The notes: generated by a model from the letters alone, not told the origin. 64,000 nucleotides of DNA from Promethearchaeota archaeon (GCA_048938855.1 JBHLLT010000010.1:43263-107262), one strand, 5' to 3'. Shown: positions 31,884 to 62,377, counted from the stretch's first letter. Made by a program: numbers and translations.

Positions 31884-34037
31884 ATGAATGAAGAACACAG
31901 AGGATGTTTAAATGGGCCATTCTTGAAGGATAACCAAATCTTATATAGAGAGTATCAAAAAAATATTGCAAATAGTTGTAAAAATAAAAATTCATTAGTA
32001 ATTCTTCCAACCGGATTAGGAAAAACTATAATTGGCATTCTGTTAATAGCAAATCGGCTAATAAAATATTCAAATGCGAAAATAATTATTCTTGCTCCTA
32101 CACGACCACTAGTATCACAGCACAGAGATTCATGTGAGAAATTTCTTGATATTGATGTTAATGAAATTGCCTTATTTACCGGAAAAATACCTCCTGAAAA
32201 AAGAATTCTATTATTTCAAAATTCTAAAATTATTATTTCTACTCCTCAAGTAATAAAAAATGATTTAATGAGAGGTAGATATGACTTAACAAAAGTTTCA
32301 TTAATAATTTTTGATGAAGCCCATAAAACCAAAGGAAATTACGCCTATAACATAATTTCAGAAGAATATATTAACACTTGCACAGATCCATTAATATTAG
32401 GACTTACAGCTTCCCCTGGAAAGAATTATGAACGAATTCAGGAAATTTGTGATAATCTCTTCATCGAAAATATTGTCTTTAAAAATTATGAAGATAAAGA
32501 TGTAAAAGACTATATTCATGACATTGACACTTTCATTAATTTCATAGATTTACCTGTCAAAATACGAGAATTAAGCTCAGTTTGGTATAATTTATTTGAA
32601 ACCTTTTTAAAATGGTTTATCAAAAACAAACTAATTGCCCCCAATAAGCCATATTACTCTAAATTGGATTTCTTAGGAATTGCCCGAGATTTAACTTTAT
32701 CTATACAATATGAAAAGGGAGAAGGTATAGAACTATCAGAAGATGAATACTTAGAGGCATTGTATTATAACTCGCCTCGGATCATTGATATTGTTAAGGA
32801 ATACCAACTTGATATCCCCACTATATATTCATATTGTTCAAGTTGTATATCTATACTCCATGCCAAAGATTTATTAGAAACACAGGACATTTCTCTTTTT
32901 AAATCGTTTTTAGACAAAATTCTTTATAAAGCGAATAAAGATATCTTATCTGCTAAAAGAATTACAAATTCAGAGCATTTTGCCTATGTAAATTCCGTAA
33001 TAGAAAGCGAAGAAAATATAAATTTATCTCATCCTAAATTGAAAAAGACAATATCAATAATCAAAGACGAACTTGAAGAATTTAACAATAAAAAAATACT
33101 TGTTTTCACACAATTTCGAGAAATGGCAGAACTTCTAAAGAATTTATTACAAACTGAATTTGAGGGACAACTTAAAATTGAAAAATTCATTGGCCAAGCA
33201 ACTAAGATGGATGATAATGGATTTCCCCAAAATTTACAGATAGAACTTTTAAAACAGTTCAGAGAAGGATTGATTAATATATTGGTCGCAACAAGTGTGG
33301 CTGAAGAAGGGTTAGATATTCCCAATGTAGATGCCATTATTTTTTTTGAACCTGTTCCTTCAGAAATCAGATTAATTCAAAGGAGAGGAAGAACAGGTAG
33401 ATACGCCCCAGGTAGATGTTATATACTTGTAACTGAAGACTCCGTTGATATTCCTTTTTATATTGTAGCTAGAAGGAAAGAGAAAACAATGAACATAGTT
33501 CTTTCTAATCCTAAACAATTGAGCCTAATTAAAGAATTAAACCGGAAAAATATTAAATTTGCTAATGAAAAACTACATTGCTCAGAAGTAGAAATAATTA
33601 AAAATTTCAGAGAAAGAAAAGAACAGGAGAAAGAAAAATTAGCTAATCGATCTATAGAAGAAATTATCTCTCAATTAGATGAATTCTGTGAGAGTAAAGA
33701 ATATAGCTCTTTTAAACAATGCGGTGTGACATTTTACTCAGATTTAGTAAAATTTAACGAATTTGACCTGAGAAAAAAAATAATTAAAATGAAATCACTT
33801 AAAACCAAGAAATCTACAGTACAAAAAAAAAATTTAAATAAAAATTTAAAAGCTTTAATAAATATAGTTAAAATTTATGGCAGAAATGGACTCTTAGATT
33901 ATGATAAATTTCAAGAATTAGCTCGTGATGAAGATATTATTGATCATAAATTTCATATCCATTTTAATCAAGCGTGTTTTTTAGGATATCTTAAGAAATC
34001 TGAGAATCGTGTGCAATTCATAATGGATTATGACTGA
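31884..34037 (+). CDS. Hef/FANCM/Mph1-like SF2 DNA helicase (no ERCC4 nuclease domain seen)
   Basis: REYQ, PTGLGKT, PTRPLV.QH, DEAH, TASPG, ATSVAEEGLDIP, IQRRGRTGR. Confidence 0.9.
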   Translation: MNEEHRGCLNGPFLKDNQILYREYQKNIANSCKNKNSLVILPTGLGKTIIGILLIANRLIKYSNAKIIILAPTRPLVSQHRDSCEKFLDIDVNEIALFTGKIPPEKRILLFQNSKIIISTPQVIKNDLMRGRYDLTKVSLIIFDEAHKTKGNYAYNIISEEYINTCTDPLILGLTASPGKNYERIQEICDNLFIENIVFKNYEDKDVKDYIHDIDTFINFIDLPVKIRELSSVWYNLFETFLKWFIKNKLIAPNKPYYSKLDFLGIARDLTLSIQYEKGEGIELSEDEYLEALYYNSPRIIDIVKEYQLDIPTIYSYCSSCISILHAKDLLETQDISLFKSFLDKILYKANKDILSAKRITNSEHFAYVNSVIESEENINLSHPKLKKTISIIKDELEEFNNKKILVFTQFREMAELLKNLLQTEFEGQLKIEKFIGQATKMDDNGFPQNLQIELLKQFREGLINILVATSVAEEGLDIPNVDAIIFFEPVPSEIRLIQRRGRTGRYAPGRCYILVTEDSVDIPFYIVARRKEKTMNIVLSNPKQLSLIKELNRKNIKFANEKLHCSEVEIIKNFRERKEQEKEKLANRSIEEIISQLDEFCESKEYSSFKQCGVTFYSDLVKFNEFDLRKKIIKMKSLKTKKSTVQKKNLNKNLKALINIVKIYGRNGLLDYDKFQELARDEDIIDHKFHIHFNQACFLGYLKKSENRVQFIMDYD

Positions 34038-34069: not shown

Positions 34070-37000
34070 TTATTTTATCTTTTCTTCCTTTGTTCTTCTT
34101 AAATAATAAACTAAAACAAAAGCAGTAACCAAAATTGGAAATGCAAAAACAGTAGGGTTACCTCCACTAAATATAAATAAATAATATGTAATTGCGATAA
34201 TTGAGGAAAAGAAAGCTATTATTCCGCCATATTGACTCGCAAAATTTCTTAAATTCCGTTTTAACATTTGAAGTTTATAATTACTACTTTTAATTACTTC
34301 TATTTCAGTTTCATCTAATTCATCTAATATTTCTGGATTTTCGAAATAGATCGAAAATCTTGGATCGAACTTACCTTTTAATTCTCCTTCACTGATAAGA
34401 TATAACAAATGATCTTGAACGTTTTGCTTTTTAATTTTTAATTCATTATTTAGAAATCCTAATGTTAAATATCCATTCGCAACTGCCTTAATTGTCATAT
34501 CTATATATGATTTTAATATTAAACGTTCAAGATTTCTAACTTTTTCAGCTAAAATCTCTGAATAATCATCAATAAACTTATTAAAGTCATCTAGTATAAA
34601 TTTTGATGTTTGATTAAAATTCTTTGATAGTTTAGTAAATTCCTTAATTTTATTATCAACAATTTTGAGGATATCCTTAATCTCTAATTCAATGCTCTTT
34701 GCTCTTTTTTGAATTAAAACATTACATTTCTTGAATTCTTTGATTTCTATATTATCTTCTACTTTTCTTTCTAAATTACCAAGCAATTGACTCAAATGAA
34801 TCTTCTTTTTATTAATAAGGTTTACCAATTGCTCTCTAAATGACTCATTTTTCATCAAGTTTAAATAATCATTAATCTTCTGTGTTTTATTATTAAAAAG
34901 GTTAATAAATTCATTTTTTGATTTTACATATAATTCTCTTATCTCTGGTACTAATTTGCTTGAATCACCAGATTTATTAAGTAGTATATTTATTTTTTCT
35001 TCGATTTTATTTTGAGATTTTTTCAATTCTTCATTAATTTTTTGTTGATTACTTTCAAAATTTTCTTGAATTTTTAGGTAGTTATCATAGCCTTCCGTTT
35101 CTTTGAAGACTTTATCAAAATGTGCTTTTAATTCGATGGTGAGTGAATTGAATTGTTGATTAATGAAGCTTTGCATTTCATTATGCATCTTTAGACTCTT
35201 TTTTATTTTATTTATAGCAGCTCTTTCATTTTCTAAAATTGATTCAAAATTATTTTTGGTTTCAACGAACTCGTCTCTCTCTTGATTAATTTTAAGTTCC
35301 TGTACTTTTTGATGGAACTGTTTGGGGAGCACATCTTCAAAAATTCTTAAATCATTAATTCTATTTTGAAGTTCTAGCATATTGATGTTCAAAGTCAGGT
35401 TTCTAATGCTTGAATCGTACAAGGTTAAAATTTTACCCACTTTCTCTCTATTAAATTTTAGTAAATTATTATCGATATAATTCTTGAGTTCTTTATTTAG
35501 ATAATAATCATCAGTATATACTAAGATGGATTTGTCTTCTTCATTAAGTTCTGCATTGATTTTCGAAACATCAATCATATCCTTTAATCTACTTATAAGA
35601 ACTTTGCAAGATAATTCTACTTCATCCTTTAAGTCGACTAATTTAATGTTATTTGTTTTTTTCTCAATAGCCATTATAATCAATTTTGATGAAATAATTC
35701 GATTGATATACTCATCTTTTAAAATAGAGATTTCATTAAGAAAGAAATCACTAAATTTCTCCCATTGAATTATGCTAAGTTCTGATTTTTCCTTAAAATT
35801 ATCAATATTCTTATTACAATCATTTAATTTTTTCACGTAGATTTTGTCTATTCTATTATAATCACTTTTTAACTGGTCAAATTTCTTTATAGCATCGTCT
35901 ATTGTTAAATTGTGAGATAAATTTAAATTATTTTTTGTATCTTTCAATTGAGATTTGAGATTAGATATATTTTGAGAAGTAAAATTATCAAAATCTTCTA
36001 ATTTACTTCGATTTCTTTCTTCAATGATCTTATTTTTTAAAACTTTTACCTGGTTAGCAAATAATTCAATCGCATTGGACTCTAATAGGTCCAACTTATC
36101 TTGTAAATGCCGATGAAGAACGTAGAGTTTTTGTTTTTTCTTAATTTCTTGTTTAACTGCTGATTGAAGTTCTTTAATTTCACTTAATCTCTTATTTAAT
36201 AATAGATCAGTCTCTTTTTTAGTAATATTAAAAGCTTCGTGAAAGGCAGTTTCTAAAATCTTGCTTTTTGCTTTATTATTGATTTCTATTATATCAAGTT
36301 TAATCTGTTCATTTATTTCTTCAATTTTTTGTATATTAGTGTTGAAAAATTGAAAACCATCAATATAATAATTGAATTCGATATTGAAATGCTCCTTGAC
36401 CCTTACCCAATTATCTATAATCTTCTTATGTTTCCTAACTATTTTCTTTTCCTTAGTGGTGACTTTTTGGGAAACATTGTAAATGATATTATCATATTTT
36501 TTTACGTTTTGAGAAATGTTGTCTAATTCCTGTATAATAAGGTTCAATTGGGCATTATCAAATTCTTTTTCAAAAGTTTCACTAAAAATCTTTCTGAAAG
36601 AATCCAGTCTTTTTTGTAAATCTTCTTCAATAATCCCAACTTTTTCTTTTAAATTTTCTAACAAGTCATTTAAATTTCTTAAATCTTCTTTTTCTTGTAT
36701 TTTACTTTGAAGATATGCTCCAACATCTGATAATTTCTTCTGCAAAACAGAATATAATTTGTTCCATTGAGCAATCTCAGCCCCTAAACTTGCTTGGATG
36801 TTGATATATTTAAGAATTTCATTAAAAGAACTTTCGATATTTTCATTTAAAAAATCCGCTTCCATTAATGCGTCTCTTAATATAAATTTTAATCTGTCTT
36901 TAGCATATTCAATTTCATTAATCAAAAGATAACTTTCAATTTCTTCTTTTATTTGGGAAATAACTCCGTTTAGTTTTAAAGTCAAATTATATATGTCGTT

Positions 37001-38476
37001 CCTAATATCTTCAAGTTTCTCTTTTTCTTCATATAATTTTTCTGTATTTAAGTTCATATCAGAGATAATAATTCTCTTTAAAAGATAGTTCAAATAAAAC
37101 AAGTATTTTGTTTTAAAGCCTAAAAAAACTTTTTTTGTTCTAATATTTCCAATAAAAAACCTTTTCTCAACCATATCTTTGATGATTGGAAAGATTTCTT
37201 CTCTTAATCTTATTGGTTCATTATTAATAAGTCTATATCTCCTAGAAAGATCTGTTAAAGAAATTATACTATTATTTTTGAGTTTCTCATAGAAAATTTC
37301 CAAAAATTTTTTTTTCCCTTGGCTAAGAGTATTTATATAATTCTTAAATTCAACTTCATTGTCTACAATCTGCAAATTAAAGGTATAGTTAAGGTTAATG
37401 TAAGATAAAATATCTCCAATATATTCTGTAAACCCAAAAGTAGTCTTTAATTGATTAACATCTATATAATTTTCTTTCTCTATTTGTTTAAATATTACTC
37501 TCTCAATTTCATCAATGAATTTTCTCCAAATTAAGGATAAAAGAGCAACTAGTTTAGAAACTTCTTTTAGTTTAAGAGTCTCCCGATTCTCTTGAAGACT
37601 TAATATTTCTCCTAATTTCTGATTGATATATGAATATATTCCAGTAGGATTATAGCTTAATAGCCATGAATACACTTCAAGCGTATAACCCATCCAGAAG
37701 GTTGTGTCAATCTTATCATCTTGATTAAAACTAAATCCTCCACTTTCATTTTGTTGTTGTTGGAGGAATTGTAATTCTTTGTCTTTTACTTCATATTCAA
37801 GATCTAAGTATTTAAGACATAAAAGTCTAAAAACTAATGCAGAATCTTTTTTTCTATCATTAAGAAATGAACGAAACTGGTCTCTATAATTACGGACATC
37901 AATTCCTAAGAGCGAAAAGATTTCCAACACGTAATACAAAATTTTCGCAGGATGGCAATTTTTACAGATTTCACACTCCTTTTTCAAACAATGTAGAAAT
38001 TTATTACCTTGCTTATGTGCTAAAACAAAATTTTTAATTTCTAATTTAATTTGGGTTTGTTTCTCAGAAAAAAGATACTCTTTTAGAAGACCAAGGATAT
38101 TAAGGCAAGATAATGCTAAATAAGTAGAATAAATATCAGGAAGCTCATCAGAATAAGGAGACAATTTGAAACCCACGCTTTCATATTGAGAAACTTCACA
38201 ATTCTTTATAAATTTAAATATTTCTTCTCTATTAGCTATTTTATCTTCTTTAAGATATTTTCGAAGCAAAAGAAACCAAAAAATTGTTTCTAAATTTAAT
38301 TGAGATGTAGTTAATAGATTTTCATTAAAGTATTGATAGTAATTAATTAATTCATTATAATTTTTAAAGTAAAAACTTTTGATTTCTTTTCTTTTTAAAG
38401 TTATGAATGATTTAAAAGGCTCTTTTTTAAATTGCGTAATATAAGGATAAGCAAATTTATCATCCATAGAAGTCAA
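34070..38476 (-). CDS. 1468-aa protein: prenyltransferase/terpene-cyclase-like alpha-alpha barrel, long coiled coil, PCI-like winged helices, two C-terminal TM helices
   Basis: GF..SP....PDIYSTYLALSCL and QQNESGGF......DTTFW repeats; heptad-rich middle; LISEGELKGKFDP; hydrophobic C-terminal hairpin. Confidence 0.7.
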   Translation of the reverse strand: MTSMDDKFAYPYITQFKKEPFKSFITLKRKEIKSFYFKNYNELINYYQYFNENLLTTSQLNLETIFWFLLLRKYLKEDKIANREEIFKFIKNCEVSQYESVGFKLSPYSDELPDIYSTYLALSCLNILGLLKEYLFSEKQTQIKLEIKNFVLAHKQGNKFLHCLKKECEICKNCHPAKILYYVLEIFSLLGIDVRNYRDQFRSFLNDRKKDSALVFRLLCLKYLDLEYEVKDKELQFLQQQQNESGGFSFNQDDKIDTTFWMGYTLEVYSWLLSYNPTGIYSYINQKLGEILSLQENRETLKLKEVSKLVALLSLIWRKFIDEIERVIFKQIEKENYIDVNQLKTTFGFTEYIGDILSYINLNYTFNLQIVDNEVEFKNYINTLSQGKKKFLEIFYEKLKNNSIISLTDLSRRYRLINNEPIRLREEIFPIIKDMVEKRFFIGNIRTKKVFLGFKTKYLFYLNYLLKRIIISDMNLNTEKLYEEKEKLEDIRNDIYNLTLKLNGVISQIKEEIESYLLINEIEYAKDRLKFILRDALMEADFLNENIESSFNEILKYINIQASLGAEIAQWNKLYSVLQKKLSDVGAYLQSKIQEKEDLRNLNDLLENLKEKVGIIEEDLQKRLDSFRKIFSETFEKEFDNAQLNLIIQELDNISQNVKKYDNIIYNVSQKVTTKEKKIVRKHKKIIDNWVRVKEHFNIEFNYYIDGFQFFNTNIQKIEEINEQIKLDIIEINNKAKSKILETAFHEAFNITKKETDLLLNKRLSEIKELQSAVKQEIKKKQKLYVLHRHLQDKLDLLESNAIELFANQVKVLKNKIIEERNRSKLEDFDNFTSQNISNLKSQLKDTKNNLNLSHNLTIDDAIKKFDQLKSDYNRIDKIYVKKLNDCNKNIDNFKEKSELSIIQWEKFSDFFLNEISILKDEYINRIISSKLIIMAIEKKTNNIKLVDLKDEVELSCKVLISRLKDMIDVSKINAELNEEDKSILVYTDDYYLNKELKNYIDNNLLKFNREKVGKILTLYDSSIRNLTLNINMLELQNRINDLRIFEDVLPKQFHQKVQELKINQERDEFVETKNNFESILENERAAINKIKKSLKMHNEMQSFINQQFNSLTIELKAHFDKVFKETEGYDNYLKIQENFESNQQKINEELKKSQNKIEEKINILLNKSGDSSKLVPEIRELYVKSKNEFINLFNNKTQKINDYLNLMKNESFREQLVNLINKKKIHLSQLLGNLERKVEDNIEIKEFKKCNVLIQKRAKSIELEIKDILKIVDNKIKEFTKLSKNFNQTSKFILDDFNKFIDDYSEILAEKVRNLERLILKSYIDMTIKAVANGYLTLGFLNNELKIKKQNVQDHLLYLISEGELKGKFDPRFSIYFENPEILDELDETEIEVIKSSNYKLQMLKRNLRNFASQYGGIIAFFSSIIAITYYLFIFSGGNPTVFAFPILVTAFVLVYYLRRTKEEKIK

Positions 38477-52260: not shown

Positions 52261-53175
52261 ATGGCAACTAAAATATCCATGATTGGACCTCCAGCGGTTG
52301 GAAAAACAACAATAAAAAGAGTAATATTTGATGGAGAAGACCCAAATGAATTAATAATATTTCCCCTTGAAGCTACCATAGGAATTAAGTATACTGTACA
52401 TGATTTTATGGATTTAAAAATTAGTTTATTAGATTCACCTGGTCAATCGCTCCCAACATTATTGGAGGATAAACAAAAACAACTTATAACATTTGGAGAT
52501 ACCAGTGCTATCATATATGTATTTGACTATCCAACCTGGATTAAAAATTCACAAGATATTCTTGATGATGTTAAAAAGCTTTATGAAATTAAGAAAAAAC
52601 ATGGATTTGAAGCAAAAATTATCTTATTCCTTCATAAAATTGATCTTCTAATTACAAAAAAAATAGGTACAATGCTTGCCTTGATAAGACGACAAATTAT
52701 AAAGCAATTAGATCTTCCCGAGGAACTACCAATTTATTTCACAAGTTTGCATCCTAATTTGATTTACACGACTTACAATGCTATCTCAGATACTATAAGT
52801 AATTTTTCTAAAGATACGTCTAACTTAAAAGAAATTGTAAAGAATACTATAAGTGGATTATCTAAAACAAGTTGTTTTGTATCTAATCATGATGATAACT
52901 TAATTATACAAGAAATGTCAAATGATTTTGATACCAGTACACTGTTTTATTTATATGAGAAATTGTATCATTTAAGTAAGTCAACTGAATTTACCACAAC
53001 TAAGACTAGTATTATAAGCCCTGGTGCTAAAATTTTAAATATGGTAATAGAAGATATAAATAATTATCATCCTAATTTTAAGTATATAATTTTGTTATCT
53101 GAAACTGTAAAACAAGATAATATGATTAAGATATTAGATGATTTAAAGAAAAAATTGAATCAATATTATCAATAA
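52261..53175 (+). CDS. Rag/Gtr-like small GTPase with a C-terminal roadblock-like domain
   Basis: G1 GPPAVGKTT, switch I LEAT, G3 DSPGQ, IIYVFD, G4 HKID (Rag-type), G5 FTSL; about 120-aa alpha/beta C-terminal domain. Confidence 0.85.
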   Translation: MATKISMIGPPAVGKTTIKRVIFDGEDPNELIIFPLEATIGIKYTVHDFMDLKISLLDSPGQSLPTLLEDKQKQLITFGDTSAIIYVFDYPTWIKNSQDILDDVKKLYEIKKKHGFEAKIILFLHKIDLLITKKIGTMLALIRRQIIKQLDLPEELPIYFTSLHPNLIYTTYNAISDTISNFSKDTSNLKEIVKNTISGLSKTSCFVSNHDDNLIIQEMSNDFDTSTLFYLYEKLYHLSKSTEFTTTKTSIISPGAKILNMVIEDINNYHPNFKYIILLSETVKQDNMIKILDDLKKKLNQYYQ

Positions 53176-53202
53176 AAATTAATAGTTTTCAAATCAAGTC
53201 CC

Positions 53203-54258
53203 ATGCTACGACAAGTCTATATAATTTTAAATGATAATATTATATACCAACGAAATTATGCTAAAGGTATAGATGATTCCCTCTTTACCAATGTCTATTT
53301 AAACATCAAAAAGCCAGCATTTTCAAAATTCGCAGAGGAAACAGCATCTTATGAGTTTTTTAAATATAGATTATCCTATATTACCGATAAAGATTTAGAT
53401 TTATTATTTCTTTTTGTAACTGGATTAGGAGACGATTTTATAAATATTGAGCCGCAATTAAAAAGCTTTAAAAAAGAATTTTTGGATATATATGCTGATA
53501 ATCTCAAGGACGACACCATTAATATAATATCTGATGTTTTTAATCCTATTGTTGACACAATTCATAGAAATTTAAAAGCAAAAATATCTATTGTAGGATT
53601 TTCTGGTGTTGGGAAAACTACAACAACAAAACTCATAAAATCAGAAGAAATTCCCATGCAACATATTCCTACTATTACAGGTGAAGTTGCAACTATAAAA
53701 ATTGGTAAATTACATTTCTACTTATGGGATTTTGCTGGACAAGATCAATTCGATTTTCTTTGGGAGAAATTTATACGAGGAAGTGATGCAGTTTTGTTGA
53801 TGACAGACTCAACATTAGAAAACCTCGAAAAAAGTAGATATTTTTTTGAATTAGTAAATAAGGTAGTTCCTTATGCTCGTTTGGCAGTTATTGCAAACAA
53901 ACAAGATTTATCCAGTGCTATGAAAATAGAGGACATCGAACGATTAATGGGACAAAAAACTTACTCCTTCATTGCTATTGATCCAAATAATAGACCTAAA
54001 ATGATCCGGATTATAGCTGATCTTTTAGATATGGATACGGAAGTATCCCCATTATTAAAACCTATATTTGATAGAGATGTTTTAATGGATAAAGCTCAGA
54101 ATGCATTAGAACAGGGTAATTTTAATGAAGCAATTAATTTATTCATGAATATAAGTAATATTTGTCTTGAATTGGGAGATGATTCTCTTTCACTCGAATT
54201 ACAAGAGAAAGCTGAAAAACTGCGATCGATTTTAAGTAAATTACCAAGTTCTAGTTAA
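53203..54258 (+). CDS. Longin-domain / Arf-like small GTPase fusion with a C-terminal helical (TPR-like) hairpin
   Basis: N-terminal ~125 aa MLRQVYII...IIYQRNY...LLFLFVT (longin-like); GFSGVGKTT, PTI, WDFAGQ, NKQD. Confidence 0.85.
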   Translation: MLRQVYIILNDNIIYQRNYAKGIDDSLFTNVYLNIKKPAFSKFAEETASYEFFKYRLSYITDKDLDLLFLFVTGLGDDFINIEPQLKSFKKEFLDIYADNLKDDTINIISDVFNPIVDTIHRNLKAKISIVGFSGVGKTTTTKLIKSEEIPMQHIPTITGEVATIKIGKLHFYLWDFAGQDQFDFLWEKFIRGSDAVLLMTDSTLENLEKSRYFFELVNKVVPYARLAVIANKQDLSSAMKIEDIERLMGQKTYSFIAIDPNNRPKMIRIIADLLDMDTEVSPLLKPIFDRDVLMDKAQNALEQGNFNEAINLFMNISNICLELGDDSLSLELQEKAEKLRSILSKLPSSS

Positions 54259-55899
54259 ATTTTGTAGAAAGATTAATACCTCATTTTTCCCAATTGGAAT
54301 AATATCTGAACGAAATATAATCTGACTATCTTGATATGGGATATTAAATTTCATAACTACTGCTCTTTGAGTTTCAAGAGCTTTTTCTATGTTTTTTAAA
54401 GCGTCTGCTGCAATTGAATCTGGTAATATATTATTTATACTTTTTCCAATGAGATTTTGTGAATTTGTACTTATCTCAAGAATTTTTTCGATTTTTTTAT
54501 CCAATTTAATATCTTGGAAAATACCATTTAACGAAATCCTAAAAATTGAAAAGGGAATATGGTTAAGTAATATTGCATTTTTTGCTTCACTAAGTATTAA
54601 ATTTTCTTGATTTTGCATTTTTTCTATGGCTGTGCCTATCTCTAGGCCAATTGTAATTATTAATTCCATTTCTTCAACAGTTATATTGGTTTTCTCATTT
54701 AAAATCATATTAATTGATCCAATAATTTCAAATTTTGAAAATAAAGGGATTACTGCTCCATTAATAGAATTATCACCTTTAAAAAATTTTTTGGTTATAT
54801 CAGGAAAATTTTCATTAAATAACGCTACACCCTGTGCAAATACGATATCATAAGGAGACTCCAATGAATTTATATTGTCATTTTGTTCAAAGAAGAATTG
54901 TGGGAGATTTCTGTGTGCCTTGATTTTAGCAATCTGTTGTTTTTTATCAACTAAATATATACAACACCCATTTAAATTTAAAAAGTCTGAGAAATAATCT
55001 ACAGTTTTTTTCAGTAAATCATTAAGATCACTTGCTTGATTTGTTATACTAATAAATTTATTCAACGTATCAATTTTATCTGCATGTCCTTTAAGTTTCT
55101 CTTCTACCATATGGATGTCTGATAAATCATGAAAAAGATATTGGATAAAATATTCATCCCCCAACTCAATCTCATTTACGTTTACTTCTAAATATAATTG
55201 CTTCTTACTTGATTTTTTTATCCTTGAAATTATGGGGGGTGGCTGCTTTATTAAATGTTGAACCATAGTAGGATCTACTAATCCCTCATCAAATAATTCA
55301 AGATCTAATGCATTATTACCTATAATTTCTTCTTTTGTTTTTTCCACTAATCTTTCTCCTTCTAAATTTACATCAACTATAACGCCAGTATCGCGGTTTA
55401 CTATGAAAATGGCATCTCGGGCTGCTTGAAATAAAGTTTGGTATCTTTGCTCTGCTATTTCTAAAGTTTTAAGTACTGGTTTAATAGATTCAAAATAGGA
55501 AAAAAAGAAGTTCTCAATCATTTTCAATTTAACAGGATCTGCTTTATGTTCTTTAGGTTCATAATCAAATGCAAGATATGCATCTTCAAGATTTATAAGG
55601 TAATTCGCAAAACCTTCAAGAAGCTTATTTGCAAGCATTAAACTAATTTGAGTTTTAATATCGGTAATAATAGTAATTAGGAAGCTTTCATAACCTCCTC
55701 TAGCAAACTTATTTGGTTGTTTAAAAAACAAATTTGCGGTTTTAATTTTTTTAAATATATGAATAAACACTCCTTTTGTTGGAAGTTCTATTAATGAAGG
55801 GATATCTTTAATAAGATCATTATCTAAAGATTCTGGTGCTTTTAAAAATATTTTTGGCCCAAAGAGGGGATCAAAACGCACAAGGAGTAAACCAATCAA
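54241..55899 (-). CDS. Longin (uDENN/FLCN/NPRL2-like) domain fused to PAS-GAF-PAS; no kinase or HTH output
   Basis: RFDPLFGPKI...FFKQPNKFARGG; RYQTLFQAARDAIF.VN (PAS); AVIPL....IIGSI...E.ELI..IG.EIG.AIE (GAF); LLNHIP..IF (PAS). Confidence 0.8.
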   Translation of the reverse strand: MIGLLLVRFDPLFGPKIFLKAPESLDNDLIKDIPSLIELPTKGVFIHIFKKIKTANLFFKQPNKFARGGYESFLITIITDIKTQISLMLANKLLEGFANYLINLEDAYLAFDYEPKEHKADPVKLKMIENFFFSYFESIKPVLKTLEIAEQRYQTLFQAARDAIFIVNRDTGVIVDVNLEGERLVEKTKEEIIGNNALDLELFDEGLVDPTMVQHLIKQPPPIISRIKKSSKKQLYLEVNVNEIELGDEYFIQYLFHDLSDIHMVEEKLKGHADKIDTLNKFISITNQASDLNDLLKKTVDYFSDFLNLNGCCIYLVDKKQQIAKIKAHRNLPQFFFEQNDNINSLESPYDIVFAQGVALFNENFPDITKKFFKGDNSINGAVIPLFSKFEIIGSINMILNEKTNITVEEMELIITIGLEIGTAIEKMQNQENLILSEAKNAILLNHIPFSIFRISLNGIFQDIKLDKKIEKILEISTNSQNLIGKSINNILPDSIAADALKNIEKALETQRAVVMKFNIPYQDSQIIFRSDIIPIGKNEVLIFLQNLTRTW

Positions 55900-56085
55900 T
55901 AACTTTCACTAAACTGATATAAATAATCTCATTTTTTACGTAGTAATAGAATTATAAAAATTTAATGATATAAATTTATTTTTAAAATCAATCTAATTTC
56001 ATTCCTTTTAAGAGATAAATTGATTATACATTTATTTATAGATCCAAAAAGAAATATTCTAAAATGATTAATTTTTTTCTTAATC

Positions 56086-56772
56086 ATGGAAGATTTGAGT
56101 ATTTATCTACAACCAACGGAATTCTTTGATTTTCATAAGAAACGTGTAAAAGAAAAGGCTATTGAAATAACAAAAGGTTTAAAGGAAGATAAAGAAAAAG
56201 CTGTTGCTTTATTTTACTGGGTTCAAAATAAGATTAAATATAATATGTTTACTTATTATCCAAAGATTAAAGCAAATCTTAAAGCATCAGTGACTCTTCG
56301 CCGAATGAACGGTTTTTGTATGTCAAAAGCTACACTTTTATCTACGTTTGCTCGCGCTGTTAATATTCCTGCGCGAATTCATATGGTTGATATTATTAAC
56401 CATAAGATCTCTAAGAAAGTAGTAGATTTAATGGGTACAAATGCATTCCATTGTCATGCATATAGTGAATTATTTTTAAATGGGAAATGGGTAAAAGCAA
56501 CTCCAGTTTTTGACAGAGAAACTTCAATAAAAGGAGGTTTCCTTCCAATTATTGAATTTGATGGAGAAAATGACGCTTTATTTGAACCTATTGGTGAAGA
56601 TGGAAATATATTTGTGGAATATATTGGTGATTATGGTTCATATGCTGATGTTCCTATAGAGAAAATCGATCAAATCTTTAGTAAAAAATATTCACAGTGG
56701 TATAATGGTGATATTAGTCTTTTTCAAGAACAATTCAGATTGAAAAGAGAACCATTAACTCTAAAAAAGTAA
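56086..56772 (+). CDS. Transglutaminase-like cysteine protease family protein
   Basis: GFCMSKA.L....R...IPAR, HAY.E.FLNGKWVKATP. Confidence 0.88.
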   Translation: MEDLSIYLQPTEFFDFHKKRVKEKAIEITKGLKEDKEKAVALFYWVQNKIKYNMFTYYPKIKANLKASVTLRRMNGFCMSKATLLSTFARAVNIPARIHMVDIINHKISKKVVDLMGTNAFHCHAYSELFLNGKWVKATPVFDRETSIKGGFLPIIEFDGENDALFEPIGEDGNIFVEYIGDYGSYADVPIEKIDQIFSKKYSQWYNGDISLFQEQFRLKREPLTLKK

Positions 56773-56802
56773 ACCATTTAGGGGTATACACTTATCCTAT
56801 TT

Positions 56803-56825
56803 ACTTATTAAGACTTATTAAGTCT
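56803..56825. repeat. Tandem 10-mer ACTTATTAAG x2 overlapping the near-palindrome AGACTT-ATT-AAGTCT; possible operator upstream of 56874
   Basis: Directly visible in the intergenic sequence. Confidence 0.4.
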
Positions 56826-56873
56826 AAAAAATATAATTAATCACTAATAAAATATTATCAAAGATTTAATAAA

Positions 56874-57797
56874 ATGCCACGAGCAATAATTTTATATGAA
56901 ATTGATCCATCGTTTGGACCCAATGTTGTCGCGGAATACTATTTGAAACAGGGAGATAAATTATCACCAAGTATTTTAAAGGATTTCTCAGAAGGACATG
57001 ATAAAAAACACTTGTTAGAAATAACAAAATGGGAGGGTGATAATAGATATTTCTCAAAAAAAATCACATCTGAATCACTAGAAAAAGAAAACCTCTATTT
57101 GAGTTTTATATTACAAGAGGAAGAAGACTTGGTTTCTGTAAAAAGTTTATCTGCTAACGTTGAAGAAATTATTAGTCAAAACTATACAGATGATAAAAAT
57201 AAAATGACTCAAATCTTGAACAATGCGATTAACTCAATTTTGAGTTTAATGGAGAAGTTAAAAGAGCCAAAAATTATTAAAGAAACCATAAATGATAGAA
57301 CTAAAAAAATGCTTGACGATGGAAAGTTATCTGAAGCACGTGAACTGATTAATCTTGGAGAACAAATCCCTGAAAAACTTGCAGCTGAAGTAAAAATTGC
57401 TGAAGATTTATTAAACCAAGAATTTTATCGAAAGGCTAAGAAGAATTTTATAAAAGCTGCAGAATTGGCAAAACTTATACAAGAAGAAGAAATTGCATCG
57501 TTTTTGTTGAATAAAGGGGAACAGGTAGGCCTTTTTCCTGATCTACTAAAGGAACGCGAAAATCTATACAAAGAGATCGATAAAATATTGATTAATCTAG
57601 AAGTCAATCAATTCCAAATTTATGATAATTTCAGTGAACCAATTGAAAGATTAATTGATATTTCACTCACTTTTGAAGAACATGAGCTTGTTGATATGTT
57701 GACAAAATTAAGAAACTATACTCAAAGGGCTTCTAAATTAGCAAAAGAATTAGATAGTATTGATGAAAACGTAAGAGATCTTATAAAAAAAATTTAA
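56874..57797 (+). CDS. Longin/uDENN-like domain plus helical repeat protein
   Basis: AIILYEIDPSFGPNVV start (same D-P-x-x-G-P hairpin as 54241..55899); helical TPR/MIT-like C-terminal half. Confidence 0.65.
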   Translation: MPRAIILYEIDPSFGPNVVAEYYLKQGDKLSPSILKDFSEGHDKKHLLEITKWEGDNRYFSKKITSESLEKENLYLSFILQEEEDLVSVKSLSANVEEIISQNYTDDKNKMTQILNNAINSILSLMEKLKEPKIIKETINDRTKKMLDDGKLSEARELINLGEQIPEKLAAEVKIAEDLLNQEFYRKAKKNFIKAAELAKLIQEEEIASFLLNKGEQVGLFPDLLKERENLYKEIDKILINLEVNQFQIYDNFSEPIERLIDISLTFEEHELVDMLTKLRNYTQRASKLAKELDSIDENVRDLIKKI

Positions 57798-57808
57798 AAA
57801 AGATAAAA

Positions 57809-59602
57809 TTATTTGATATTTTCTTCATTAGATGGAGGCTCTTCAGCTACAGGAGGTTGATATTCTCCAATATCCTTGAAAATAACTTTACATATCTCCC
57901 ATCCTTTTTCTGTTGGATATTTTAATGCATTAGCAATCAATTTCTCTCCCATATCATTGTTCAATTCTACTTTATGGAGATTTGGATTATCTTTGAGTAT
58001 CATTTCATATTTAGCGCCCCCAGTTCCTTGAGGAACAATTAGCAATCCATAGTCAATTTGCTTTTCTGCGATTGCATCTTTTAAACGTTTCGCAGCATAA
58101 TATCCTGCTACTCCAGCACTTCTGTCGAAAGTTTTAATTGAAGGAATTTCTAAACCCCATTTTTTACCTTCAGCTTCGATTAAAGCTGCTAATGTCTGTG
58201 TTTTCTTTCCAAGCTTGAATTTATACTCCAATTGTGTCTTAAACTTTTTCTTTTTTTCTTCTCCAACCATGTTTATATACTTCAACGTAGCTCCAGCAAC
58301 TGATTGTGGATTCACCTCAATGGAATATTCTTCTTCTGCTAAAATATCCTCAATCGTTTTTTTAATAACTTCTCTTGGTTTGGAAAAATCAATAACTTCC
58401 TCCGCTTCCAATTCGGTTTTAGGTCTAGCAGTGGCTACTATCTCTGCTCCAGCTTTTAATAATTCATCTACTGACATTTCCTCCATAACTATTTTATCTA
58501 TGAACCTTCTACAGAGTTTAATTGAATTTCTCGGATTACCCTTTGTTTTATCATAAATCATTTCAATCAATTTTTCATTTAATGGAAATAATGGATATAA
58601 GGGAGGATTTAGGTTATTATTTTCCCAAAATGCTTCCATAGATTTTGAAAAATAGATTTTTAGGTCATTTAAACTAAATGGTTTTAATTCCTGTTCAGGT
58701 TCCATTCGTGATCTCAAGGGAGCATCTGCGATTTCAATAATTCTTGGCCAAATTTCTTTCAACACTGCTATAGTTATAACTAGGCCTTTAACTTCATTAT
58801 ATAATCGTTTTAAAATTTCAAGGAATTTCATCTCAGCAGCTTCCCCTAACATCCTATACGGACTCTCTAATTCGTCAAAGTAAAGGATAAGAACTTTATC
58901 CAAATTTTCTGTGATAATTTTAATCATTGCAAGGCATACATCATCTTCTTCGAGTACAGAATTAATTCCTAATTCATTTAATTCCTCATCTTCTAAATCT
59001 TCTCCAAGCAGCCACCTTTCAGCAAGTGGTTTTTTATTCTTGTCTAATTGATAAGTAACAAGTGCTTTTACACAATCAGCAAATACACCAGGAAATTCTC
59101 TTATTCCTAACTGAATCACTTCATCTAATTTAGGTTTTTGGAATATTCCCTTTTTACTTCCTCCCCATTTCTTAATTAATCTATCAGATACAATATCTAT
59201 TAATTCAGCTCCAAGTTCTTCAATTATACAGGTATAAACATGAAGTAAGACTCGAATACTTGCCGGAGGACTTGGAACATAGACAATCGTCCAATCTGCA
59301 GAGGTTCCAATCTTACTAGCATCTACTTCTTCTACCTCTTGATCTCCTTCTAACTTTTTCCTGTTTTCACGTTCCTTATCCTTGAATGAATGATAAGCAT
59401 GAGTTTTTCCAGTTCCAGCTGAACCTAGAATTGGGATTAGTCTACTAGCTTTATCTCTAGACGTTTGTTGTACAAGTCTATATAATTCTCTATCTATGAA
59501 ACCACGAGGACGTGCGATATCGATCGGATCAGCAATATCTCCTCGAGACACAAAATTAGAAAAAGGCATTATTGGGGCTTCTTGTAAGACTGAGATATAC
59601 AT
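57809..59602 (-). CDS. AAA+ P-loop ATPase (DUF2791/BrxD-like features) with an uncharacterised C-terminal alpha/beta domain
   Basis: GSAGTGKT, ERWLLGE, ILYFDELE, LRSR, GNPR; frame open 13 further codons to ATT/CTG (59633-59641). Confidence 0.75.
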   Translation of the reverse strand: MYISVLQEAPIMPFSNFVSRGDIADPIDIARPRGFIDRELYRLVQQTSRDKASRLIPILGSAGTGKTHAYHSFKDKERENRKKLEGDQEVEEVDASKIGTSADWTIVYVPSPPASIRVLLHVYTCIIEELGAELIDIVSDRLIKKWGGSKKGIFQKPKLDEVIQLGIREFPGVFADCVKALVTYQLDKNKKPLAERWLLGEDLEDEELNELGINSVLEEDDVCLAMIKIITENLDKVLILYFDELESPYRMLGEAAEMKFLEILKRLYNEVKGLVITIAVLKEIWPRIIEIADAPLRSRMEPEQELKPFSLNDLKIYFSKSMEAFWENNNLNPPLYPLFPLNEKLIEMIYDKTKGNPRNSIKLCRRFIDKIVMEEMSVDELLKAGAEIVATARPKTELEAEEVIDFSKPREVIKKTIEDILAEEEYSIEVNPQSVAGATLKYINMVGEEKKKKFKTQLEYKFKLGKKTQTLAALIEAEGKKWGLEIPSIKTFDRSAGVAGYYAAKRLKDAIAEKQIDYGLLIVPQGTGGAKYEMILKDNPNLHKVELNNDMGEKLIANALKYPTEKGWEICKVIFKDIGEYQPPVAEEPPSNEENIK

Positions 59603-61921: not shown

Positions 61922-62377
61922 TCAGAAATATTCTAAAAATGGTTTTGCTTTCTTTTTTCCTTCAAGATCCTTAATAGATTCCAATATTATTTTAGACAAT
62001 TCCTTCTTTTTTTGAAAGTATATAGTCATTATTTTATCTAAAGTCATATTTGGATACCTTTCAAATAATGCATAATCTCTTTTTGGACAACCATTTCGCC
62101 TCATACAACAATACGAGAGAGAACCAAAACACACTAATTCGGAATCCCAATTGTTTTCTCTCGAAAAAGCTTCTTTAATTTTGATAAATTCTTCTGGATC
62201 AAGCCCCAACTCCTCCAATTTTTCGTCTCTTCTGCATTTAAATCCAAATGTCAGTGAATACCCCGGTTTACAACAAAATGTTAATGCACGATAGTCTCCT
62301 CCCATGCATAAAGGAACTGGAGCATTTTTTTCCCATCCGGGAAGGTCTCTAAGTTTATCTGGATCTAATTCTGTCAA
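61922..62377 (-). CDS. Methanogenesis marker 9 domain-containing Cys-rich protein
   Basis: W..AP...C.GGD.R.L.FCC, CFGSL..CC....C..RD. Confidence 0.8.
   Translation of the reverse strand: MTELDPDKLRDLPGWEKNAPVPLCMGGDYRALTFCCKPGYSLTFGFKCRRDEKLEELGLDPEEFIKIKEAFSRENNWDSELVCFGSLSYCCMRRNGCPKRDYALFERYPNMTLDKIMTIYFQKKKELSKIILESIKDLEGKKKAKPFLEYF

Follow-up and report, generated by a model that had tools for sequence, protein, structure and literature searches.

Co-inheritance of a sensor-fused longin protein with a Rag-like and an Arf-like GTPase in a Lokiarchaeial family

The longin-type GTPase-activating proteins (GAPs) of eukaryotes are FLCN-FNIP, which acts on RagC/D, NPRL2-NPRL3, which acts on RagA/B, and SMCR8-C9orf72, which acts on Arf1. 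A trio of genes that can be compared with these systems is present at positions 52261 to 55899 of a 64,000 nucleotide (nt) stretch of DNA, here called the window, from a Lokiarchaeial genome (GCA_048938855.1 JBHLLT010000010.1:43263-107262); homologues are labelled Promethearchaeota or Lokiarchaeia. The trio encodes a Rag-like GTPase, an Arf-like GTPase and a longin domain fused to PAS-GAF-PAS, the last referred to as the sensor protein. The longin fold (Z 13.7 and 12.5), the GP motif and the Rag-like and Arf-like GTPases nearby are shared with the eukaryotic GAPs, as is probably an arginine in the corresponding loop. The trio differs from them in that PAS-GAF-PAS replaces the DENN or NPRL2 C-terminal domains, so that the sensor is in cis, and in having no dedicated partner subunit, a single Rag-like gene and no sequence-level match. 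Its different C-terminal domains and the lack of a co-inherited partner subunit keep the sensor protein, which by hypothesis works like FLCN, GATOR1 or SMCR8, from being a member of any of these. Another prokaryotic case of a small GTPase whose roadblock/longin-fold regulator is encoded close by is MglA-MglB of Myxococcus. MglB forms a roadblock homodimer without sensor domains and MglA provides its own arginine, whereas in the trio the arginine would be supplied in trans.

Asgard NPRL2-like longins fused to two-component-type domains have been described (Fig. 5c in Liu et al. 2020, 10.1101/2020.10.19.343400), and signalling without mTOR, which is absent in Asgard, was proposed for them in the same work. 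The sensor protein is a member of this group, sharing the domain class, the kind of fusion and the idea of an mTOR-free pathway. That such a sensor-longin arrangement was undescribed, as far as the original prediction knew, cannot stand beside the published fusions. The sensor protein differs from these in having no kinase or receiver and in the co-inheritance of a Rag-like plus Arf-like pair; the text of Liu et al. names neither a GTPase partner nor an arginine finger. Asgard longins of the FLCN/SMCR8 type with a GP motif and an arginine, as in the sensor protein, are treated in passages of PMC12290439 that ask whether ArfR or Rag/Gtr GTPases are their partners. Those passages contain no sensor fusion or gene neighbourhood, whereas the locus described here offers candidate partners. 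The GTPase-roadblock and longin-GTPase architectures are shared with Asgard Rag-like and longin-GTPase fusions already known in Lokiarchaeia (PMC10933270; PDB 9m28 LokiRagM, 8yl2 LokiRagO and 8yqg). In MK-D1, gene order poorly matches GTPases to GAPs or guanine nucleotide exchange factors (GEFs) (PMC10933270), whereas here it does give a regulator-GTPase match. A fixed Rag-like plus Arf-like pair beside a sensor-longin was not found in the literature searched. The features of the trio, with lengths in amino acids (aa), are:

52261..53175, + strand: Rag/Gtr-like GTPase with a C-terminal roadblock-like part, 304 aa; trio member
52378-52380: codon for residue 40 of the Rag-like protein, which follows the switch-I Thr; site of a clade-specific Arg loss
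53203..54258, + strand: putative longin, Arf-like GTPase and TPR-like helices, 351 aa; trio member and favoured target
54241..55899, - strand: the 552-aa sensor protein, an FLCN/NPRL2-type longin with PAS-GAF-PAS; candidate sensor-gated GAP
55456..55899, - strand: longin domain, residues 1-148 of the sensor protein (AF2, Foldseek, VIA)
55699..55701, - strand: Arg67 codon; the residue belongs to the ARG motif in the strand 4-5 loop and is the candidate arginine finger
55120..55446, - strand: first PAS, residues 152-260 (Pfam PAS E 8e-9, PAS_9; TIGR00229)
54622..55032, - strand: GAF, residues 290-426 (Pfam GAF_2 E 2e-8)
54244..54582, - strand: probable second PAS, residues ~440-552 (weak second PAS_9 stretch); least conserved part

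The Arf-like gene starts 27 nt downstream of the Rag-like gene, and the sensor gene is convergent with it, the two overlapping tail-to-tail by 18 nt. The two GTPase genes are probably co-transcribed, judging from this spacing and from their pairing in several genera. A scan of the locus for promoters and terminators with a bacterial model gave matches at chance level only, and no RNA holder is on record there. The genome of 3.95 Mb has about 77 small GTPase genes, and about 11% of all its genes are found within 2 kb of one, so a GTPase neighbour by itself means little.

The evidence that the three genes belong together comes from their inheritance. Across the family the locus has a backbone, with a CCG oxidoreductase on one side and, on the other, a transglutaminase gene, a longin-helical gene starting at 56874 (the 56874 gene), an AAA ATPase and Hsp20; an FTR gene is also part of the backbone in many relatives. 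Between these flanks is a variable slot that admits many unrelated genes. In 13 species genomes (12 from the genus of the source genome and one from genus g2) and in 6/6 further looked-up records, the slot holds the trio, down to 59% identity. The assembled slot is without all three genes in 8 genomes from six genera, in which the 56874 gene is still there, and no trio orthologues were found elsewhere in three trio-less genomes of the same genus (99% completeness). Among the loci read, a GTPase pair in the slot was always accompanied by the sensor gene. In one further genome (G056) the sensor gene is at a contig end and no close GTPase pair was found.

The trio is also present at two loci outside the slot. 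At G049:C19 it is convergent and has other surroundings, the sensor gene being cut at the contig end. At G089:C398 it is diverged (39-49% identity), all three genes are co-oriented, and the GP/ARG longin carries different sensor domains. In gene trees the longin from this locus groups as the sister of the slot clade (100/98) and its Rag-like gene falls within the same clade (100/99); the Arf-like gene is also in the slot clade, with lower support (87/90) and long branches flagged. Among the longins of the sensor type in the source genome, five of six either share a chain with a small GTPase or lie no more than 2 kb from one, compared with 11% of genes. Presence and absence at the slot, recurrence at two other loci and agreeing trees all bear out co-inheritance of the sensor gene with both GTPases. 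The module is one of three genes and not four: the proposed synteny of four genes held for these three, while the 56874 gene is not co-inherited with them. The genera in which it was found are few and belong to one Lokiarchaeial family.

The longin domain of the sensor protein was modelled with an AF2 pLDDT of 90.6. Its nearest solved structures in Foldseek are GATOR1 chains (E 7.6e-7). VIA gives Z 13.7 with FLCN (6nzd_H; root-mean-square deviation (rmsd) 2.4, 136 aligned) and Z 12.5 with NPRL2 (8fw5_B; rmsd 2.7, 130 aligned), and the GEF and coat longins rank below these, with Z under 10. In the model, Gly14-Pro15 opens strand 2 (strand E14-21) and A66-R67-G68 sits in the loop that joins strands 4 and 5. 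These five residues are invariant in 33/33 non-redundant full-length homologues, with identities as low as 59%, and GP and ARG are retained in most of the distant paralogues. This set is relied on in place of alignment A5, where the invariant columns (G14, P15, R67 and G68) are partly a matter of selection, two motif-less fusion longins having been excluded. The pairing of a GP motif with an arginine is described as a mark of GAP longins, present in Asgard proteins, in PMC12290439. Searches of PDB sequences and Pfam with sensor-longin profiles did not reach NPRL2, FLCN or SMCR8, the best match being Folliculin at E 0.13 with one member, and the link to GAP longins therefore rests on fold and motifs. 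The eukaryotic arginine finger presumably occupies the same strand 4-5 loop; from its position in the model, R67 would be the equivalent of FLCN Arg164 (NPRL2 R78, SMCR8 R147).

The remainder of the chain consists of the first PAS, the GAF and a weakly scored last PAS, with no DENN-type or NPRL2-type C-terminal domains, and a Pfam scan of the protein found neither a kinase nor a DNA-binding domain. The sensor protein is a cytoplasmic sensor whose sole output is a GAP-type longin. Its description as a longin joined to PAS-GAF-PAS is confirmed for the longin fold, the PAS and the GAF, less so for the last PAS. That the longin is of the GAP-catalytic type is upheld by the FLCN and NPRL2 folds being the closest and by the invariance of GP and ARG.

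The G domain of the Arf-like protein is matched by Pfam Arf (E 1.1e-18, residues 121-253) and by Arf entries of the PDB, has the motifs GFSGVGKT, PTITG, WDFAGQ and NKQD, and is followed by a TPR-like tail at the end of the protein. It is preceded by a domain of about 120 residues, and the Arf-defining amphipathic helix at the chain start is absent. The name 'Arf-like' is assigned by similarity, a label that may mislead as to membership of the ArfR, ArfL or Rag-like group. The N-terminal domain is a putative longin, with family matches to SRP-alpha_N, Fuz_longin_1 (E 0.001) and Longin (E 0.003), and with the AP-2 mu longin matching residues 5-118 at E 0.23; an atlas search with this N-terminus gave no usable match. 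Of the earlier description as a longin-Arf-like protein, the Arf-like part is confirmed and the longin part weakly supported.

The Rag-like gene matches Pfam Gtr1_RagA (E 4.8e-19) and its G motifs are intact, with GPPAVGKT at G1, T39 in switch I, DSPGQ at G3 and the Rag-type HKID at G4; Gln62 is invariant. The best solved matches of its family profile are RagA and Gtr1 (human RagA residues 6-263, E 2e-22), the RagA alignment running into the roadblock domain and weakening toward the end. Its Rag/Gtr-like identity was correctly recognised, as the Pfam match, the G1-G5 motifs with HKID and the RagA/Gtr1 profile agree. One Rag-like gene is present at the locus in the source genome and two in four relatives. 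The trio-linked Rag-like clade is without the Arg after the switch-I Thr, which all 27 other aligned Rag-like paralogues keep. This is one change on one branch, at a position that is likely to face a partner. In Ras/Arf geometry the residue after the switch-I Thr points to partners and not to the nucleotide, and the Arg of the other paralogues was rejected as a finger in cis on this geometry. In the slot at L113, L157, L159, L191, L192, L196 and L197, the Rag-like gene, its Arf-like neighbour or both are duplicated in tandem, and in three duplicate Rag-like copies Ser replaces the switch-I Thr. The upstream neighbours of the Rag-like gene include a response regulator plus a GAF-HATPase gene (L161:10827-12492) and, in another relative, a 426-aa protein grouped by similarity with the sensor (L111:12100-13380).

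A complex was predicted from the sensor longin, both GTPases and GTP. It scored 0.34 (runs 0.00, 0.34 and 0.45) against 0.00 for the best control, with contact agreement of at least 88% and partner pLDDT of at least 78. In calibration, 58 of 80 solved pairs and 2 of 110 mismatched ones came up to the mark; with scores of 0.60 or below, only 7 of the 80 solved pairs did so, as did both mismatches. Like complexes have already been solved, so the score may reflect likeness. The control in which the Arf-like chain was replaced and the Rag-like chain kept scored 0.00, a faint hint that the Arf-like GTPase is the target. The three-chain prediction with GTP returned no interface. Set against the best control, the score is weak support for the complex.

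The sensor protein is tentatively read, at slightly less than an even chance, as a ligand-gated arginine-finger GAP for which the Arf-like GTPase is the more likely target. The PAS and GAF domains would bind a small molecule or sense a redox cue, and the signal would travel along the helix that links the longin to the first PAS and reposition the longin. Arg67 would then enter the nucleotide pocket of one GTPase and accelerate GTP hydrolysis, completing the active site jointly with the conserved glutamine of the GTPase. The GAP platform may get its second longin from another copy of the sensor protein or from the N-terminus of the Arf-like GTPase, and would not get it from the 56874 product. 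If the protein is a GAP, the Arf-like GTPase is somewhat favoured as its target, the Rag-like GTPase is a distinctly less probable one, and action on both is improbable. The more specific proposal of a one-component ligand-gated arginine-finger GAP, either as a homodimer or with the GTPase's own longin, acting on the neighbouring Rag-like/Arf-like pair, is possible but unlikely.

Several observations weigh against a GAP acting on its neighbours. Most of the trio copies are at one inherited slot and are hence kin, not independent; the sensor gene is convergent and is not co-transcribed with the GTPases; and Rag-like/Arf-like pairs without an adjacent sensor-longin are found in G009, G013 and G037. 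In five other genomes, the flanks read around related longin-PAS proteins contain no small GTPase. In G017 and G032, short forms with an intact ARG and without the last PAS are in the same slot without the GTPase pair, and no close Rag-like homologue was found in G017. The persistence of these short forms is one reason to consider that the sensor-longin is a GAP for some other small GTPase of the genome, its adjacency to the pair being inherited gene order. The 77 possible targets in the genome, the stand-alone longin-PAS paralogues and the many unrelated genes that the slot accepts are others. The recurrence of the trio elsewhere in another orientation, with trees that agree, tells against it, as does the pair not having been seen alone in the slot at any of the loci read, and this explanation is considered rather unlikely.

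Marginally less probable again is that the three proteins cooperate, but with the longin as a nucleotide-state-dependent scaffold, GEF or effector and with Arg67 and GP forming a non-catalytic binding surface. Longin platforms are mostly GEFs or adaptors (PMC10933270), and some fusion paralogues persist despite the loss of GP and ARG in the first longin. Moreover, proximity to a GTPase does not distinguish a GAP from a GEF or scaffold, and co-inheritance demonstrates linkage, not chemistry. Set against this are the reported specificity of GP plus Arg to GAP longins and the ranking of GAP-type above GEF-type folds for the sensor longin.

The original prediction included a fourth gene, and its four open reading frames (ORFs), the 27-nt gap and the 18-nt overlap are all borne out, although its inventory overlooked a gene lying between the third and the fourth. 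The genes beyond the trio are:

56086..56772, + strand: transglutaminase-like gene (Pfam Transglut_core E 6e-17); backbone gene outside the trio, found both where the trio occurs and where it does not
56874..57797, + strand: longin plus helical protein, 307 aa (longin 1-130 plus helices); backbone gene
57809-59602, paired tail-to-tail with the 56874 gene: AAA ATPase; backbone gene

The 56874 product is a longin-helical protein as described, its longin having an invariant GP and no ARG, and it is judged to be a bystander and not a trio member. Its homologue is found as one match each in 52/61 family genomes, mostly without the trio. The fold is nearest the VAMP7/adaptin longins (Z 13.1, rmsd 2.0, 107 aligned), with GATOR1 and C9orf72-complex chains at Z 9.1-9.7, and its profile matches that of the sensor longin at only 9.5% over 19 columns. 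The gene is absent at the trio loci G049:C19 and G089:C398 and beside the short forms. All well-assembled genomes that carry the trio in the slot have it, and a truncated copy is still in place beside the trio at L163. That an NPRL2-NPRL3-like heterodimeric GAP has the 56874 product as its non-catalytic partner is therefore very improbable: its longin fold, its GP without arginine, as in C9orf72, and its presence in all well-assembled slot-trio genomes, where it could act in trans, are outweighed by its tie to the AAA ATPase and Hsp20 in trio-less genomes, its absence from the other trio loci and its VAMP7/adaptin-like fold, and the earlier claim of a second GAP subunit is not sustained. The 56874 gene and a 597-aa P-loop ATPase (weak BrxC/D match, no NCBIfam family) are found tail-to-tail by Hsp20 across the family (window 56874-59602) and are a possible module of their own.

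The nearest paralogues of the sensor protein are single chains in which an Arg-longin is followed by an Arf-like GTPase, then by a second longin carrying WD and RGG motifs, and then by PAS-PAS-GAF. The sensor protein aligns to the first longin of these chains and then to the PAS after the second. In them, two GAP-type longins flank a GTPase. The source genome has a 1127-aa longin-Arf-like-longin-PAS-PAS-GAF chain with a further domain (G000:C54:56591-59974, part in L152; relatives L139-L143), in which GP and ARG are lost in the first longin and Lys takes the place of the G3 Gln. At L143, two Rag-like genes follow the single-chain fusion.

Other clusters combine similar parts. Several Rag-like GTPases, a CheY-like gene and PAS-containing genes are clustered at L120 (G009:C2), L121 (G037:C4) and L126 (G011:C87), one Rag-like GTPase having an N-terminal WD-motif longin-like part; those at L121 and L126 hold a 225-aa GP/ARG longin. 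These clusters are a fuller form of the trio logic. At L122 (G026:C234), longin-Arf-like, Rag-like and small GP/ARG longin genes are co-oriented, in a gene order unlike that of the window. A 348-aa GP/ARG longin is fused to a divergent small GTPase at G000:C62:59169-60215 (L156). At G000:C74:23018-40022 (also L146 and L147), a longin-Arf-like paralogue lies amid repeated gene pairs, each made up of a 1200-1500-aa gene whose N-terminus is hydrophobic and a longin-like gene of 370 aa that has a WD-type start. Elsewhere in the window, 61922-62377 has a methanogenesis marker 9-like domain (TIGR03277, 78.9 bits against a cut-off of 96.2), and a 1468-aa ORF without an NCBIfam match (34070-38476) lies beside a Hef-like helicase (31884-34037).

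The suggestion that the locus is a precursor of Rag signalling is too strong, since the trio is known from only some genera within a single Lokiarchaeial family; being lineage-restricted, it is an analogue of Rag signalling rather than a precursor. For the same reason GAP activity, even if true, would not be evidence that the mTORC1 pathway descends from the trio. The trio names a regulator and its candidate targets, three soluble proteins and one residue (R67) that are directly assayable. It bears on the question, raised in PMC12290439, of GAP activity in the Asgard GP/arginine longins and of the GTPases that would be their targets, and it addresses the matching of regulators where gene order rarely helps (PMC10933270). 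If the proposed mechanism is true, the sensor protein would be the first archaeal longin GAP to have both its substrate matched and a sensor of its own, and catalysis of the FLCN/GATOR1 type on Rag-type GTPases would be older than eukaryotes. Longin arginine-finger catalysis would then date from before the eukaryotes, gated in this family by a prokaryotic sensor.

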